Positions 2,339-11,223 of a DNA stretch of 64,000 bases are shown piece after piece. Numbering within the stretch: position 1 is the stretch's first letter; every line of letters starts with the position of its first letter. Position numbers and translations under genes: made by a program. Below the pieces are notes generated by a model. The model was not told the origin of the DNA, made no database searches, and saw nothing but the letters and a program-made list of their open reading frames with translations. The DNA comes from Minisyncoccota bacterium (GTDB taxonomy: Bacteria; Patescibacteriota; Minisyncoccia; Phycocordibacterales; UBA2100): the NCBI GenBank assembly GCA_043780835.1, contig JAYWCB010000013.1, positions 13,512-77,511 on the forward strand, given 5' to 3'.

Positions 2339-2473
2339 GTAAGAACCCTCTGTGATTGAAAGAGCGCGAGGTACGAAAGAACTGGCCGGATTGATGATCC
2401 GGAATCTGGTTCGAAGGTCTTCGAGCGAGATTCCGAGGCACTATCCGTTCTCCGATAGTCTTGCCGTAACAAA

Positions 2474-2525
2474 GAAGCCCCCGCTTGGGGCGGGGGCTTC
2501 TGGTGTTGTTTCGGTTTGTTTATTT
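2474..2525. terminator. GC-rich hairpin plus T-rich tail, terminator-like
   Basis: Stem gaagcccccgc/gcgggggcttc with a ttgg loop, followed by a T-rich tract. No annotated gene ends here. Confidence 0.4.
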
Positions 2526-2755
2526 CTGAACCGTTGCATACGCCAAAGCCCCCTGTTTCCAGAAGCTATAAAAGTATACAAATGCGATGACTGCTCGATT
2601 CATTACGATTGAGAGTACGCCTGTCTGAAATTCTGTCAAGATTTGATCACATAATTATTCTTGACAGGATGCGCGTCCGCAGTAGGCTTCGTTGAGTACT
2701 GTTGCGTAGCGTGCGTAAAGGACGGTAGAAGACTGCCATTACAAGGGAGATACCA

Positions 2756-3833: not shown

Positions 3834-4149
3834 TTAGAAGCGGCGCATTGACCGGTCATTGCCGAGGTTCACAATGGTGGAAGTGCCGCGCGGAGATCCG
3901 TGGAGAAAAGGCGCCAATGCCTAGCCCTGCCATCGGACCCAGTGAGGCGTCATGCCCTCAAATGGGATTTAAAAACAGCACGTGCAATCAATCGGGAGCA
4001 ATCTGCTCAAAGCCTCGGAAATTGGCGCGCCGCTTGTCGACGCGCCCTTTCATTGTAAAAGCCCTCCCTCAGGAGGCCTTCATCACGCTTACGATATACT
4101 GCCAAAACGGGCCTTTTGTGGCTTCAATCATGGTCTTTCGGCCTTGGGG

Positions 4150-4177
4150 TTGACTCTCATGGTTTAGCGCTTATAAT
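4150..4177 (+). promoter_or_regulatory. Sigma-70-like promoter (TTGACT, 16 nt spacer, TATAAT), candidate rRNA promoter
   Basis: Near-consensus -35 and -10 hexamers about 535 nt upstream of the 16S start. No protein gene lies between them. Confidence 0.4.
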
Positions 4178-4711
4178 GGCTCGACCATCGCTCCTGATGG
4201 CCTTTTATTTGGGGTCGGAATTGATTTTCTGATCAACGAATATGCCTGACTGCCACTCGGCACGACGGCCTTCAAACCGAAGAGGGCGGGATGTGGATGG
4301 CTGAACTTTGACATTTGAATAGACAAAGCATTTTGCATCGAATTCTGTAGCGGAATTCGGTGTGAGAAAAACAATCAATGTAAATTCACAAAGATTGGTA
4401 AGACTCGAATATCCAATAAGCCGGATGTTCGAGAAGCAATGCAACACACAAGCAAGCAAACAAAATACAACGTACTGCGAAGCCCTAGGAGAGTTTCGTA
4501 GTATATGAGGAATAGAAACAGTACTGATTACATTGATCCAAATGTAAATCAGGAAACAAAAAATCAGATTGAATCATGTTCTTCGAACATGCATAAATGT
4601 GCATTCTTTTGTTTCGTCCATCCTAAAAAAGAACTAAATCAAATTTGTAACAGAATTTCATGGCAGTGCACTCAAGGATCCGTCCACGTGCACACTATGT
4701 AATACATTCTT

Positions 4712-6169
<1,458 letters not shown>

Positions 6170-6254
6170 AAATTGGACGCTGAAACACCCGCGAGGGTGC
6201 GGTAAGCTAATAGGCGATTTGGGTATCTCGATCGAGTACCCAAGGGAAATGGCA

Positions 6255-6345
6255 TTCATCCATAAATGATGCCTGACATATCGGCAAAGACCGGTAGTTT
6301 GGACGAAACAAAAGAGTGTATATTCTTTTTTGTCTGCAAGTTTGT
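6255..6345 (+). repeat. Noncoding repeat R1 (paralog of 6722-6790 and 8150-8245)
   Basis: Shares GATGCCTGAC..AAGACCGGTAGTTTGGACGAAACAAAAG(A)GTG and the downstream block ...TAAATAATGCTTTGTCTATTCA with the other copies, at about 85% identity. Confidence 0.7.
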
Positions 6346-6387
6346 GTGCTAAATAATGCTTTGTCTATTCAGATGTGAAATAAAAAA

Positions 6388-6420
6388 ACAGCCGGCTCGC
6401 AATGAGTCGGCTGTTTTTGT
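6388..6420 (+). terminator. Intrinsic terminator after 16S/R1
   Basis: Stem acagccggctc..gagtcggctgt followed by tttttg. Confidence 0.6.
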
Positions 6421-6447
6421 GTAATTCACCAATGCTATGCTTTGTTT

Positions 6448-6690
6448 ATGATTCAGGTACGTATTGTAAAGCGAAGCGAGAACCCGTCTCTGTTTTGGAG
6501 TTCTGTTTTTCAAGGGGCGTTTCTTGCTCTCTTGCCGGTACTGGGTTTTGCCGCATTTATCGGATATATCCTTCAGCTATCAACGCGGACCAATATTGTG
6601 TTCATCGCGGGCACGGGAATAATTGTATTCTTGGTAACAGCGTTCGCGCTTTCAAGGCGTGAGGTAATCCCCGAGATTGGCCTTGTATAA
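6448..6690 (+). CDS. Hypothetical small membrane protein (2 predicted TM)
   Basis: ORF with two hydrophobic segments. No clear RBS. Weak support. Confidence 0.3.
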   Translation: MIQVRIVKRSENPSLFWSSVFQGAFLALLPVLGFAAFIGYILQLSTRTNIVFIAGTGIIVFLVTAFALSRREVIPEIGLV

Positions 6691-6721
6691 GTCGCACAAA
6701 CATCCAAGTTTGTACCTACCC

Positions 6722-6790
6722 CCAAATGATGCCTGACGTACTGGGAAAGACCGGTAGTTTGGACGAAACAAAAGTGTAAATAAAAACACC
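6722..6790 (+). repeat. Noncoding repeat R2 (shorter copy of R1/R3)
   Basis: AAATGATGCCTGACGTACTGGGAAAGACCGGTAGTTTGGACGAAACAAAAGTGTAAATAAA. A terminator-like hairpin follows at 6785-6817 (aacaccc...gggtgttttttt). Confidence 0.65.
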
Positions 6791-6904
6791 CCAGAACAAT
6801 GACGGAGGGTGTTTTTTAGGTATGCCATAATTCATGGTATTTCGTCTGGTTTGATTCTCACGATGCCGCAGGTTTAACCTGCGGCATTTGGCGGTTACTT
6901 AGCA

Positions 6905-7456
6905 TTAACCGCCAAATTTCCACATTCCAAGCATAAATAAAGTCATGAGCACCGCGAATACAAGAATTCCAGACAATAGCACTTTTATAAGATTACTCAA
7001 CGCATTTTTCTTGCTTCCTGAAGCTGGGCCGGTCAAAGTATCGACACCGTTATTTTTAGCATATATATTTCTCAGCCCGACTTTCACCAGATACATGCCG
7101 AATCCAAGTAGAGCAAGGGGTCCGGCATAATCTATGTACGGTTTGTCCGACTGGCCCAATGACGTTCTCCATAGAACTAGCCCATAGAGTGCTAGAAGTG
7201 TACTAAGGCTTCCAAGAACTGTGTAAAGATATCCAGTGAAACGGCGTGAATGAGGTGTCATCTCACGGACCCCTATCCATGTGCACATGAGACCTGCCGG
7301 AATTCCTACAATCCAGAATAGTGTTTCTGTGCCTGCGAGCACAAGGTCACCAGACGAATAAAGAATGCCCACCGCGATGATGCAAAAGAGTGTAAAGAGA
7401 ATGCCGAATGCCCCAAGGGCAATACCTATGAGGGAGTAAAGAGGGTCTTTTCTCAT
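6905..7456 (-). CDS. Hypothetical integral membrane protein (about 183 aa)
   Basis: Multi-TM hydrophobic ORF. The likely start MRKDPLYSLIG overlaps the upstream gene's stop by 4 nt (ATGA). The listed ORF extends to 7615, probably an artefact. Confidence 0.5.
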   Translation of the reverse strand: MRKDPLYSLIGIALGAFGILFTLFCIIAVGILYSSGDLVLAGTETLFWIVGIPAGLMCTWIGVREMTPHSRRFTGYLYTVLGSLSTLLALYGLVLWRTSLGQSDKPYIDYAGPLALLGFGMYLVKVGLRNIYAKNNGVDTLTGPASGSKKNALSNLIKVLLSGILVFAVLMTLFMLGMWKFGG

Positions 7457-8052
7457 TTGACCGAAGAAGCAATAGCTTTTTTGGTGAAGAAATACGTCGC
7501 GTAGTAGAGGATAGCGATGGATACGAGAAGTCGGATGATGGTGACTGTATCGAGATGTTCCGAAAGAATGAACGTGCCAAGGAAGAAGAAAACGGCCCAA
7601 ATACCCGCAAACCAAAGTGCGACACGGGCGGGATCATGTTTACTTTGGAGATAGCCTTTTCGGGCAACGTATGACACTGACGCCCAGCAGCTTATTATCG
7701 TTACGATAATGCCCAACAACAGACCCACAAAGAAATTCTGGAGTAAATCTTTTGGTAAAAGATAGTATGCAGGAACGTTAAGTACGATACCGCATATAAT
7801 GAAAATAAACGCCATCCGATTCGTTACGAAGAAGTACCCGTGGTCTTTCTCAGACTGCGCCTCAGCTCTAGACATGCTACGGCCAAGCCAACCCAGTAGA
7901 AGAGCGCCGCCGATGGTGCCAATACCTGTCCCCACAAGATGAATTGAGCCCGGTGTATTCGCGGGCAACACAGATTCGAGTACAACAGCTGAAATAATCA
8001 GTCCCAAAAAAAAGCCTATAATTCCGTACAAGAAAGCGCGAATTGATAGCAT
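7453..8052 (-). CDS. Hypothetical integral membrane protein (199 aa)
   Basis: Five or six hydrophobic helices. Translationally coupled to the downstream membrane-protein gene. Confidence 0.55.
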   Translation of the reverse strand: MLSIRAFLYGIIGFFLGLIISAVVLESVLPANTPGSIHLVGTGIGTIGGALLLGWLGRSMSRAEAQSEKDHGYFFVTNRMAFIFIICGIVLNVPAYYLLPKDLLQNFFVGLLLGIIVTIISCWASVSYVARKGYLQSKHDPARVALWFAGIWAVFFFLGTFILSEHLDTVTIIRLLVSIAILYYATYFFTKKAIASSVK

Positions 8053-8149
8053 GTCAATATTTTACCCCCCCCCGTGGAGTCCGTGCCTGATACCTTTCTC
8101 ATATATGGGGACAGAGATAATACGACACTATTCGAGCGAATAAGGGAGA

Positions 8150-8245
8150 GAGACCGGTAGTTTGGACGAAACAAAAGAGTGAATATTCTTTCTGTGTTGT
8201 TTGAATGTTTGTGTGTAAATAAATGCTTTGTCTATTCAAAAGTCA
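8150..8245 (+). repeat. Noncoding repeat R3 (paralog of R1)
   Basis: AGACCGGTAGTTTGGACGAAACAAAAGAGTGAATATTCTTTCTGTG...GTGTGTAAATAAATGCTTTGTCTATTCAAAAG. Confidence 0.7.
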
Positions 8246-8401
8246 GTACTCGCGAGTAATGGTCGTAAAAAACGCCCGCTTCCTTCGAGGAACACGGTTT
8301 TTTTGTACTGGTATGCTTTCCAGATATTAAGGAAAAACTCCTCATACAACACCAATCTTGCCGCAGGTTTAACCTGCGGAAACTTTCACCTCAGGAGCGA
8401 A

Positions 8402-8568
8402 AGATTTTGGAAATGCGCAAGGGCCTGACCGAGGAGGGGATTTGTTTTCTCTCGAAGAGGTCGGAGGGAATTCGACATTACCCACGAGCGTATCCGACAA
8501 ATCGAAGCCAAAGCCTTGGAGCACATCCGTTTCTACGATTGTGCTAAACAGCTGCGAAGTTACTAGTG
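8402..8568 (+). pseudogene. Frameshifted remnant of a sigma-70 (RpoD/SigA) C-terminus, region 4
   Basis: Three frames read in succession give EMRKGLTEEG, then SLEEVGG, then EFDITHERIRQIEAKALEHIRFYDCAKQLRSY*. RIRQIEAKAL is the hallmark sigma-70 region 4.2 helix. No upstream sigma domains are present. Confidence 0.55.
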
Positions 8569-9120
8569 AGTCTTGTGAGCCTCGATTCTGTCGGCAATCT
8601 CGTCTGCGAGGTACGTTCGAATCATGTATTCAGTACTAGCGTCTTTTGGTTTTAGGACGAGAAATGAACGTGCGAACGTAGGGCTGTTATAGAATCGCTG
8701 GCCGAACATTTTACCGAGTGCTGTGTTCCCGGTAGGGACCGTACCGAAACGTGAAGTCTCGTACGCATCGCCAAACTCTGACGCGTTATGGTAGCGGTCG
8801 CCATATTTTCCGTTCCAAAATTTGAATCCGAAATATTGTGACCATGGAAGACGAACTACTTTCGCTTCACGAATCTTCGAAAGGTCGATGATGAGCGGCT
8901 TATACATGCGACCCATTGCAATCGTGAGCTTATCTTGGTGAATGGTAACGATTGTCCATCCATACATGAGTACAATGTATAAGGAGACCAGAGGAGGTGT
9001 GATTACAAGGGGCATTGTTTGGTTGGTGATGCCTTCACGAGCAATAATATAAAGAGGGATTAAAAGTGCGAGCGCGCCAAAACCCAAGTAGAAGATATGG
9101 AGTTGAACGCGCCGGTACAT
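8563..9120 (-). CDS. Hypothetical membrane protein (2 N-terminal TM plus a soluble domain, possibly bacterial PH-like)
   Basis: 185-aa ORF with two hydrophobic helices followed by a soluble domain. Domain assignment is tentative. Confidence 0.5.
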   Translation of the reverse strand: MYRRVQLHIFYLGFGALALLIPLYIIAREGITNQTMPLVITPPLVSLYIVLMYGWTIVTIHQDKLTIAMGRMYKPLIIDLSKIREAKVVRLPWSQYFGFKFWNGKYGDRYHNASEFGDAYETSRFGTVPTGNTALGKMFGQRFYNSPTFARSFLVLKPKDASTEYMIRTYLADEIADRIEAHKTH

Positions 9121-9351
9121 AAAGAAATCATAGCACTAACAATCTCGTCGCAGCTCGATGGGAAGGCGTATGACCAGCTCAATGTAGTCTTGGAGACATA
9201 ATACAGTCTGTAACAGAGAGGCGAGGCCTCCCTGTTCAAAATAATGCTTTGTCTTTATTGCGGTTCTAATTTTTAATTTTCTGCCGTAGTAATGACGCGT
9301 GACAAACCGCCGGCGGCAATGCCGGCGGTTTTCGTATGCTAGTGTCTTTTT

Positions 9352-9975
9352 ATGATAGAAATGGTCTCGTACTATCTTACAGACATATTGCCGCACGCCA
9401 TCGTATACAGTGTCATCACGATCGTCTTACTGATAAGTTTTGTCGCCGCGCTGGCGATAGCCGGAAGAGCGCCTACCACTTCCATACTGCGCTTCGAGCG
9501 TTGGCTCATGTCGCCGTTTACAGTGTGGGAGTTCCTGTATCTTTCGGCACTCTATTTACTGTTCGAAATCGCCGATCTCACACTCGGTGTTATGGCGGCA
9601 TTCGGTGTGCCACAAGTATCGGACATACAGATCTATTTCTTTTCTGGAGGAGATATATTTGCAATCCTCGCGCTACTCATAGCTGTCGCTATTGAAGAGT
9701 TAATATTCCGAGTCGTACCGCTTCTTATTTCAGTACGATTCTGGGGGTTTGGACTGCCTACATTTGCGTGCTTGATCGGGAGCTCTATCGTATTCGGATG
9801 GATGCACGGCGACATCAGAAACGTCTTTATCCAGGGCGCCGGAGGGCTCTTTTTCGGCATGTTCTTCCTTAAACTCTCATATGGCGGCAAGCGGCCGGTC
9901 CAAGCGGCCGCGTTTGTCATCGCGCTGCACTTTGCCTTCGATATGTTCATTATCATCCTTACAGGAACTTTTTAA
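9352..9975 (+). CDS. CPBP-family intramembrane glutamic endopeptidase (CAAX protease/Abi-like)
   Basis: Multi-TM protein with the CPBP motifs EELIFRVVP (EExxxR), FGWMHG (FxxxH) and HFAFD (HxxxD). Confidence 0.8.
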   Translation: MIEMVSYYLTDILPHAIVYSVITIVLLISFVAALAIAGRAPTTSILRFERWLMSPFTVWEFLYLSALYLLFEIADLTLGVMAAFGVPQVSDIQIYFFSGGDIFAILALLIAVAIEELIFRVVPLLISVRFWGFGLPTFACLIGSSIVFGWMHGDIRNVFIQGAGGLFFGMFFLKLSYGGKRPVQAAAFVIALHFAFDMFIIILTGTF

Positions 9976-9987
9976 ACCGATACGACA

Positions 9988-11223
9988 TCAGATGCAGTAG
10001 GTCTGCAGCGGTTCAAAACCATTAAAGCCGACCGAGGAGTAGCTCGATGTGTATGCACCGGTCGCATGAATGCGCAGCCGATCGCCGACTTTCAGCGAAA
10101 GCGGCAGCTGGTACTGAAATTTCTCATACAGGATATCGGCCGAGTCGCACGACGGTCCGGCAAGGATAACTGCCCCGGTCGCACCTTTACGACCGACGGC
10201 TTCGATCCTGTATTTGATGGCCTCATCAAGCGTTTCCGCAAGACCGCCGAATTTTCCGACATCGAGATAGACCCACCGCACATCTTCTCCGTATGATTTC
10301 TTCGATATCAGCACGACCTCGGCTTCAAGCACCCCGCTATCGCCGACAAGGGAACGACCCGGTTCGATAATAATGCGAGGCGAGCCGTCGGCGAAATTCT
10401 TGGAGAATGCCACACGTATGGCCGCTGCGTAGGAGTTGATCGATTCGATCTTGTCGCGGTACTGAGCGGGCAGCCCACCGCCGATGTTCACGACATCGAG
10501 CGCAATACCTTGCGCGCGTAGATTGCGAAAGATCTGTGCCGCCTGTTCCAAGGGACGTTCCCACTGTTCGAGACGAGTTTGTTGCGATCCCACATGGAAC
10601 GAAACGCCGCACGGCTCAAGTCCGAGATTCTTTGCTTTGAGGAGGAGGTCGTACGCCATATCGACTTCGCAGCCAAATTTGCGCGAAAGCGGCCAGTCCG
10701 CTCCGTCGCAGCTCGTCAGTATTCTGCAGAATACTCGTGCGCCCGGTGCCGAACGCGCGAGCTTGTCCAATTCGGACTCGGAGTCGAACGCAAAAAGCCG
10801 GCCTCCTTTTGCGTATGCATAGGCGATGTCCGTCTCTTTCTTTATTGTATTTCCATAAGAAATACGATCGCAAGAAGCGCCGGCAGCGAGAACAAGGTCA
10901 ATTTCTCCGGGGCTTGCCACATCGAAATTGGAACCGAGACCCACCAGGAGCCTGATCACATCCCGCGCAGGATTTGCTTTAACCGCATAGAAAATTTCGC
11001 CGCTGGGCATCGCGCGACGCATGTCCGCATATTTCGTGGCGACGACATCTAGATCGATAAGAAGAAAGGGTGTCGCGGGAGCGTGCTCGTCTATGTAACG
11101 AGCCATTTTCACCGTTGACGGGGCCGATTGTTTGATCGGTTGAGCACGAGAACCTAGATGTATTTTCGAAACAGGGCTCGGAGCTACCTCACGAGTCTGC
11201 AATTTCGTACCGCGATTGTTCAT
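9988..11223 (-). CDS. Fold-type III PLP-dependent decarboxylase (ornithine/lysine/diaminopimelate decarboxylase family)
   Basis: FYAVKANP PLP-lysine motif, GGGLP and EPGRSLVG motifs, about 400 aa. Substrate not assignable. The true start may be the internal Met (MARYIDEH, about 11106). Confidence 0.75.
   Translation of the reverse strand: MNNRGTKLQTREVAPSPVSKIHLGSRAQPIKQSAPSTVKMARYIDEHAPATPFLLIDLDVVATKYADMRRAMPSGEIFYAVKANPARDVIRLLVGLGSNFDVASPGEIDLVLAAGASCDRISYGNTIKKETDIAYAYAKGGRLFAFDSESELDKLARSAPGARVFCRILTSCDGADWPLSRKFGCEVDMAYDLLLKAKNLGLEPCGVSFHVGSQQTRLEQWERPLEQAAQIFRNLRAQGIALDVVNIGGGLPAQYRDKIESINSYAAAIRVAFSKNFADGSPRIIIEPGRSLVGDSGVLEAEVVLISKKSYGEDVRWVYLDVGKFGGLAETLDEAIKYRIEAVGRKGATGAVILAGPSCDSADILYEKFQYQLPLSLKVGDRLRIHATGAYTSSYSSVGFNGFEPLQTYCI

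Follow-up and report, generated by a model that had tools for sequence, protein, structure and literature searches.

Repeats downstream of an unlinked 16S rRNA gene in a Minisyncoccota bacterium: the trailer strand of a pre-16S leader–trailer helix and its orphan duplicates

The 16S rRNA gene and the repeats that follow it

We analysed a stretch of 64,000 nt (here called the window) of contig JAYWCB010000013.1 (assembly GCA_043780835.1, Minisyncoccota bacterium), in which three related non-coding repeats, R1, R2 and R3, follow the 16S rRNA gene. The gene occupies 4711–6171 on the forward strand and matches the Rfam family SSU_rRNA_bacteria over model positions 1–1533 (1371 bits). Neither a 23S nor a 5S rRNA gene was found by Rfam in the 64-kb window; there is no 23S gene within 58 kb downstream of the 16S gene, and none was found within 8 kb of the 16S gene in six related loci. 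This arrangement fits the unlinked rRNA genes reported for Patescibacteria and other phyla (Brewer et al., bioRxiv 10.1101/705046). The R1 region is placed 85–210 nt past the 16S 3' end, ahead of the first terminator.

The repeats share a 26-mer (GACCGGTAGTTTGGACGAAACAAAAG), found exactly three times in the window (starting at 6289, 6749 and 8152, all on the forward strand), with no further copy in the window at up to three mismatches and no match in any of 100 shuffled sequences. BLAST-type alignments between the copies are significant: R1 (6264–6314) and R2 (6724–6774) are 92.2% identical over 51 nt (E-value 2.6e-16), and R1 (6288–6371) and R3 (8151–8238) are 87.6% identical over 89 nt (E-value 6e-21). 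R2 corresponds to the left flank of R1 plus the core, and R3 to the core plus the right flank of R1. A preliminary description of this DNA had already pointed to three repeats with a shared core, and the 26-mer bears this out; one part of the proposed core, GATGCCTGAC, is common to R1 and R2 only, the homology of R3 beginning at AGACCGG. The same description placed a hairpin and a T-run after each copy. Such hairpins are present in all three cases and are of unequal quality: T1 (6384–6418), after R1, is strong (−24.4 kcal/mol, z-score −7.35), T2 (6782–6816), after R2, is moderate and followed by a T-run (−11.3 kcal/mol, z-score −2.1), and T3 (8268–8304), after R3, folds no better than shuffled sequence (−8.2 kcal/mol, z-score −0.2). 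R1 and R3 do bracket a segment of about 1.86 kb with two minus-strand open reading frames (ORFs) rich in hydrophobic residues.

R1 as the trailer strand of the leader–trailer helix

Cofolding of the 16S leader (4180–4710) with the trailer (6172–6425) gave three intermolecular helices, with all strands read on the forward strand of the window. In helix H1 (25 bp) 4596–4620, part of a leader segment (4596–4623, CATTCTTTTGTTTCGTCCA) that is invariant in relatives, pairs with 6300–6324; in H2 (19 bp) 4445–4465 pairs with 6328–6348; and in H3 (25 bp) 4307–4332 pairs with 6355–6380. A 17-mer of H3 occurs in the window only at 6355–6371 and 8222–8238 (forward strand) and at 4316–4332 (minus strand), where the leader strand is its exact reverse complement. 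The three trailer strands make up R1 proper (6300–6380). Two hairpins, A (6251–6273) and B (6279–6296), stand before them inside R1 and show covariation in 29 trailers, and T1, recognized as an inverted repeat (I3) and by its fold energy, is the intrinsic terminator of the 16S unit. On the other side of the gene, a promoter-like site (TTGACT-16-TATAAT, 4150–4177, forward strand) agrees with the consensus at 11 out of 12 positions and would be the likely start of the 16S unit; the similarity of the leader to those of relatives stops near this site, at about 4114–4150.

Judged by this order along the DNA (16S end at 6171, R1 at 6251–6380, terminator at 6384–6418), R1 appears to lie inside the 16S transcription unit and to be co-transcribed with the gene. 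Transcription would start near 4180, cover about 530 nt of leader, the 16S gene and a trailer of 250 nt, and stop at T1. The trailer would first fold hairpins A and B locally and would then pair with the leader through H1, H2 and H3 (about 70 bp in total), joining the two ends of the 16S rRNA for 30S assembly and for RNase III-type processing, as in studied bacteria; these transcript ends and the role of R1 in processing are predictions. The preliminary description preferred to read the units of repeat plus terminator as a candidate family of small RNA (sRNA) genes, which our results do not support. R1 is not such a gene; it belongs to the predicted primary transcript of the 16S gene, where it supplies the trailer side of the leader–trailer helix.

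The leader–trailer helix, or processing stem, was reportedly described by Young and Steitz in 1978. The present case shares with the known bacterial element the complementary 16S flanks in one transcript and a long helix (25 + 19 + 25 bp here). It differs in that the unit is a stand-alone 16S transcript with its own terminator and no 23S gene downstream, and in that the trailer strand has orphan paralogues downstream. In Escherichia coli, RNase III cuts this helix, and 30S biogenesis depends on it. The helix has been treated by Warner et al. 2023 (PMC10250234) and Gemler et al. 2024 (PMC11404451); it is described as ubiquitous and as necessary for the making of 30S subunits, and every bacterial phylum examined was reported to have it (PMC11404451). 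Rfam, which the preliminary description had named as a check on its sRNA family, had no family for the repeats at gathering score over the whole window. At E-values up to 1 over 6172–9400, two sub-threshold matches were obtained, at R1–T1 only (29.8 and 26 bits, for gathering scores of 60 and 55).

Conservation of leader and trailer in relatives

We scanned 185,579 species genomes of GTDB for a 19-mer of H1 (TGGACGAAACAAAAGARTG) and found it on 40 contigs, about 30 of them from Patescibacteria (labelled Kaiserbacteria, Paceibacteria, Parcubacteria and Saccharibacteria). The occurrences fall into two classes. In the leader class, the complementary strand stands ahead of the 16S gene, within its 5' leader (in the window, about 90 nt from the 5' end of the gene), and the leader 19-mer was seen upstream of 16S genes in more than 15 Patescibacteria contigs. 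In the trailer class, the 19-mer is about 125 nt past the 16S 3' end, with two small hairpins before it and a variable stretch and a terminator after it. Four contigs (L008, L014, L023 and L025) carry both classes, 1.6–1.7 kb apart, and 20 further metagenome contigs have the same arrangement of leader and trailer. The same leader–trailer pair surrounds 16S genes in more than 30 Patescibacteria contigs. Every relative for which both flanks were at hand has it, with constant spacing to either end of the 16S gene.

Hairpins A and B are conserved as structures: among 29 distinct trailers 98.7% of the alignment cells are paired (at most 42% in slid controls), and 10 out of 11 base pairs show double changes. 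H1 is conserved as a sequence, invariant on both strands, including one G·U pair, in contigs whose 16S genes are 81–92% identical to that of the window (L002–L061). Such invariance, in genomes whose 16S genes differ by up to about 12–19%, contrasts with the stress on structure over sequence in the leader–trailer helix literature. The leader strand of H1 (CAUUCUUUUGUUUCG) may bear a loose resemblance to a boxA element. The closest relative of the window is the Paceibacteria metagenome-assembled genome ant_bin.587 (L040), with a 16S gene 98.8% identical over 1449 nt.

As a side observation, the 16S genes of several relatives (L004, L006, L010, L016, L017, L028 and L042) are interrupted by 0.4–1 kb, and the insertion in L017 has an Rfam match to group-II intron D1-D4; the 16S gene of the window is uninterrupted.

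Orphan trailer copies in a variable island

A trailer profile built from 29 trailers was used with nhmmer, and it recovered R2 at 6713–6777 (profile positions 17–81, E-value 3.6e-15) and R3 at 8151–8246 (profile positions 52–87, E-value 2.3e-7), both on the forward strand. R2 is 5'-truncated in the loop of hairpin A: the 5' arm of this hairpin is gone, hairpin B (which still folds) and most of the H1 strand are kept, and the invariant GAGTG end is missing. T2 (forward strand) follows directly 3' of R2. The 5' truncation of R3 falls in the 3' arm of hairpin B, and the H1, H2 and H3 strands are kept. The H3 strand of R3 is identical at 25 out of 25 positions to the complement of the CAYYEX leader (L035); in this part R3 is closer to another lineage than to R1. 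Since the two copies are truncated inside hairpins A and B, they cannot form the structure that covaries in true trailers. T3 (forward strand) is a decayed terminator of a type seen after the 16S trailers of other species; its likeness to the JAQBQU/L034 terminator (AAAAACGCCGACTTCTTCGAGAAGCACGGTGTTTTTT) was judged by eye.

A fourth fragment, R4 (9239–9337, forward strand), is probable. It consists of two colinear matches: an H3-strand fragment (AATAATGCTTTGTCT, 9239–9254), identical to R1 at 16 out of 16 positions (E-value 0.005), and a terminator, T4 (9304–9331, −26.9 kcal/mol), which agrees with the trailer terminator of L040 at 19 out of 20 positions (E-value 0.002). Each match is weak alone; by their order, R4 is probably a trailer fragment with an L040-type terminator. 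Just after T1, positions 6436–6458 (ATGCTTTGTTTATGATTCAGGT) resemble the H3 strand (ATGCTTTGTCTATTCAGATGT) by eye, below BLAST significance, and may be a further small trailer-derived fragment. It overlaps the start of ORF82 (6442–6690, 82 codons), which we do not count as a real gene: it has no Pfam family and is not recorded as a called gene.

The orphans lie between the trailer and a gene for an ornithine/diaminopimelate decarboxylase (9988–11223). This decarboxylase gene is within about 70 nt of the trailer terminator in L009 and L015; other relatives have 0.4–5 kb between trailer and decarboxylase, or carry different genes there. On the upstream side, relatives share the synteny of the window (SecDF and the leader). 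By this comparison, about 6420–9990 is a 3.6-kb variable island between the trailer and the conserved decarboxylase gene, with a slightly lower G+C content (46% vs 50%). The DNA between R2 and R3 holds, in the ORF list, two overlapping minus-strand ORFs rich in hydrophobic residues (6905–7456, 183 a.a.; 7453–8052, 199 a.a.), here called the cargo. We also considered R3, read on the minus strand, as a leader-like 5' untranslated region (UTR) of a cargo operon and rejected it: R2 and R3 are of the trailer type (GAGTG), not of the leader type (GAATG), and a −10-like TAAAAT stands 6 nt before the start codon at 8052, so that the likely start site would leave R3 outside the transcript, on its upstream side.

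Recurrence in other genomes

We compared 27 distinct 16S loci for which the sequence continues for 1 kb or more past the gene, and found five orphan trailer copies in four of them: two in the window and one each in L017, L020 and L042. The trailer profile revealed no more decayed orphans beyond these five in the window and 62 loci. All five follow the true trailer, share its strand and extend through the core, and each is 5'-truncated at a different profile position (17, 30, 34, 52 and 58). The other 23 of the 27 loci have no orphan, and L040, the closest relative, has none either.

The DNA between the copies differs from locus to locus. For example, a 200-a.a. ORF without a Pfam family is found in L017, genes for a glyoxalase, an esterase and a Fic/DOC protein in L020, and an MNT/HepT-like pair in L042. 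No homology was detected among the cargo proteins of the window (199 a.a. and 183 a.a.) and of L017 (200 a.a.), which argues against a single mobile element. Pfam scans of the island ORFs found no integrase in any of the four islands. In L042, the insert has a direct repeat of about 95 nt on both sides (two to three mismatches), and only the second copy runs into the native flank. No 23S gene lies between the canonical and extra trailer copies in L020 and L017.

Origin of the orphan copies

R2, R3 and probably R4 are most likely scars or by-products of homology-driven insertion at the 16S 3' flank. The island would have been inserted stepwise between the trailer and the decarboxylase gene, anchored on the clade-invariant trailer core. 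One route would be single-crossover integration of circular DNA with a trailer fragment; another would be unequal crossing-over. Under Campbell-type integration, the end of the shared fragment would set the end of the first copy, and its beginning the start of the second; the layouts of R2/R3 and of L042 are what it predicts. Exact cores with differing flanks need no local selection, because the core is invariant across the clade. As scars, the orphans would have no RNA function of their own. The preliminary description had allowed for spacer-derived repeats or recombination or attachment scars beside its sRNA family, and this alternative largely holds: the 16S 3' flank is the source of the copies, and they border inserted DNA. 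Taken together, we consider it likely that R1 forms the 3' side, the trailer strand, of the leader–trailer helix of pre-16S rRNA in a stand-alone 16S transcript of Paceibacteria (candidate phyla radiation) and that R2, R3 and probably R4 are orphan insertion by-products without RNA function.

Several observations weigh against this account. The cores of R2 and R3 are exact over 26–30 nt, their flanks differing by 8–20%, and selection, instead of a recent or foreign origin, could have kept the cores exact. The duplicated lengths vary widely, being 25 nt in one case and about 29, 95 and 150 nt in others, so a single mechanism may not account for them all. No independent assembly supports the junction nearest to the 16S gene (R1–ORF82–R2), and the silence of R2 and R3 is something we infer, as are the recombination mechanism and the orphans' lack of function. 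For the helix itself, H1 gives no covariation because it is invariant. When cognate leader–trailer duplexes of H2 and H3 were ranked by energy, a noisy proxy, the own leader came first in 2 out of 14 genomes, the pair of the window being second. With cognate pairs first in so few genomes, support for the long extension (H2 and H3) is limited and comes mainly from complementarity in this genome and in a few relatives.

An alternative is that the copies are attL/attR-type sites of a site-specific element which targets the 16S trailer, its recombinase recognizing the core. R2 (left flank plus core) and R3 (core plus right flank) bracket 1.4 kb much as attL and attR would, and L017, L020 and L042 likewise have an insert between direct repeats at this site. 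However, no integrase, recombinase or transposase is encoded in any of the four islands, the cargo genes are unrelated, and the duplicated lengths range from 25 to about 150 nt, with similarity that decays rather than stopping at sharp core boundaries; we regard this alternative as unlikely. Genomic islands are found at the 3' ends of tRNA and tmRNA genes, where they are flanked by direct repeats. The islands described here resemble them in that a conserved sequence associated with a stable RNA is duplicated around variable cargo, and differ in lacking an integrase, in the variable length of the repeat and in the target, which is the flank of an rRNA precursor and not the end of a mature RNA.

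A functional role for the orphans seems quite improbable. R2, as a piece of a 3' UTR, and R3, as an independent transcript, might provide the H1 trailer strand in trans and compete with R1 for the 16S leader, thereby titrating or timing the leader–trailer helix and 16S maturation. The leader-complementary core is indeed exact in all three copies despite diverged flanks, but it is invariant clade-wide, and the identity of the copies needs no local selection. A terminator-like hairpin follows each copy, and a promoter-like site at 6425–6452 could drive a transcript through R2 to T2 (a unit of 6425–6816); by a consensus scan only, this site is the one from which R2 can be reached, no promoter-like site is found in 8053–8150 ahead of R3, and T3 does not fold better than its shuffled controls. 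R2 preserves hairpin B, with two changes that wobble pairing accommodates, yet both orphans lack the 5' hairpin arms that covary in true trailers, and R2 lacks the invariant GAGTG end. Moreover, the orphans are absent from L040 and most other loci, and their boundaries differ in every case, which speaks against a family of sRNA genes as well. R2 and R3 share with 3' UTR-derived or terminator-associated sRNAs a short conserved sequence directly before an intrinsic terminator; unlike those, they are not conserved as units in relatives and have no Rfam match.

It is very hard to credit that R2, R3 and R4 are remnants of deleted extra 16S copies. Each orphan does have the layout of trailer and terminator found at real 16S genes, but the truncation points are inside the trailer itself, every related locus examined has a single 16S gene, and no 16S fragment exists in the window outside 4711–6171, so that R2 and R3 are not attached to an rRNA gene; the idea of a lost operon was dropped for want of such a fragment next to them. 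Nor is it credible that the tandem arrangement is an artefact of metagenome assembly, chaining strain variants through the shared core: the source is evidently a metagenome-assembled contig and independent Logan contigs break exactly at the repeat cores, but Logan contigs (SRR23617225) are identical to the window over 6745–8180 and from about 8152 on, including the non-trailer lead-in to R3, unique non-trailer sequence stands before R2 and R3, unlike strain variants of a 16S flank, and the same architecture is seen in three unrelated assemblies.

Other features of the island and the window

The cargo proteins have few relatives. Neither the 183-a.a. nor the 199-a.a. ORF has a Pfam match at gathering score; the former has a weak similarity to T4SS_pilin (E-value 0.0049, below the cutoff). 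A search for cargo homologues among 5.8 billion proteins gave only one distant homologue: for the 199-a.a. protein, an identical protein and one 36% match were found, the latter on a contig of 1 kb in which inspection by eye showed no piece of a trailer.

A 21-nt perfect hairpin (TGCCGCAGGTTTAACCTGCGG, −21.2 kcal/mol) occurs twice in the window, at 6864–6886 and 8359–8381 (no strand assigned to the first copy), each time about 45–55 nt past T2 or T3, and it was not found in any of the related loci. The second copy overlaps the start of a frameshifted fragment of sigma-70 region 4 (8371–8566, forward strand) and runs into it, the two together covering 8359–8566. The fragment, which is C-terminal and unique in the window, matches Pfam Sigma70_r4 with an E-value of 1.9e-14 on the repaired 64 a.a., and it is gene debris inside the island. 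The island also holds one ORF without a Pfam family and a gene for an Rce1-like protein. The preliminary description passed over the 16S gene upstream of them, the complementary leader segments, the probable fourth fragment and this pair of 21-nt hairpins.

The 16S 3' end (6155–6171) reads GGATTCATTCCAAA and contains no CCTCC anti-Shine-Dalgarno motif. Upstream of the 53 long ORFs of the window (−22 to −4), GGAGG, AGGAG and GGAG were found in none, and TATACT, TACTG and TAGTG are enriched 10–18 fold. The enrichment of −10-like motifs and the absence of Shine-Dalgarno motifs at −22 to −4 suggest that −10 boxes abut the start codons and that mRNAs are mostly leaderless. A unit at 2468–2639 (minus strand), conserved in seven relatives, has TTGACA, a spacer of 16–17 nt, a TATACT-like −10 box and an ATG about 8 nt later, followed by a 27-codon ORF (MNRAVIAFVYFYSFWKQGALAYATVQK) with synonymous changes between species and then by a strong terminator. 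No Rfam family matches this unit at E-values up to 1, and it looks like a leaderless micro-protein gene.

Implications

The repeats are explained as a new example of a known element, the leader–trailer helix, together with its orphan duplicates. A false small-RNA lead is removed, and in its place stands a concrete model of the pre-16S leader–trailer helix for a lineage of the candidate phyla radiation with unlinked rRNA genes. The 16S gene without a nearby 23S gene is shared with the genomes of Brewer et al.; their work does not describe the flanks, and in the present case the DNA 3' of the 16S gene doubles as a variable site of insertion. The invariance of the H1 sequence across many genomes of Paceibacteria and Kaiserbacteria type hints at a sequence-specific partner beyond the helix.

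The site just past the trailer is a recurrent place of insertion: in 4 out of 27 loci accessory genes are bracketed by trailer duplicates, with no integrase. As a tentative and rather doubtful proposal, the trailer core might serve as an integrase-free landing pad for small accessory cassettes among Paceibacteria and Kaiserbacteria. If true, such homology-driven cassette exchange would offer organisms with tiny genomes a simple means of gene flow.

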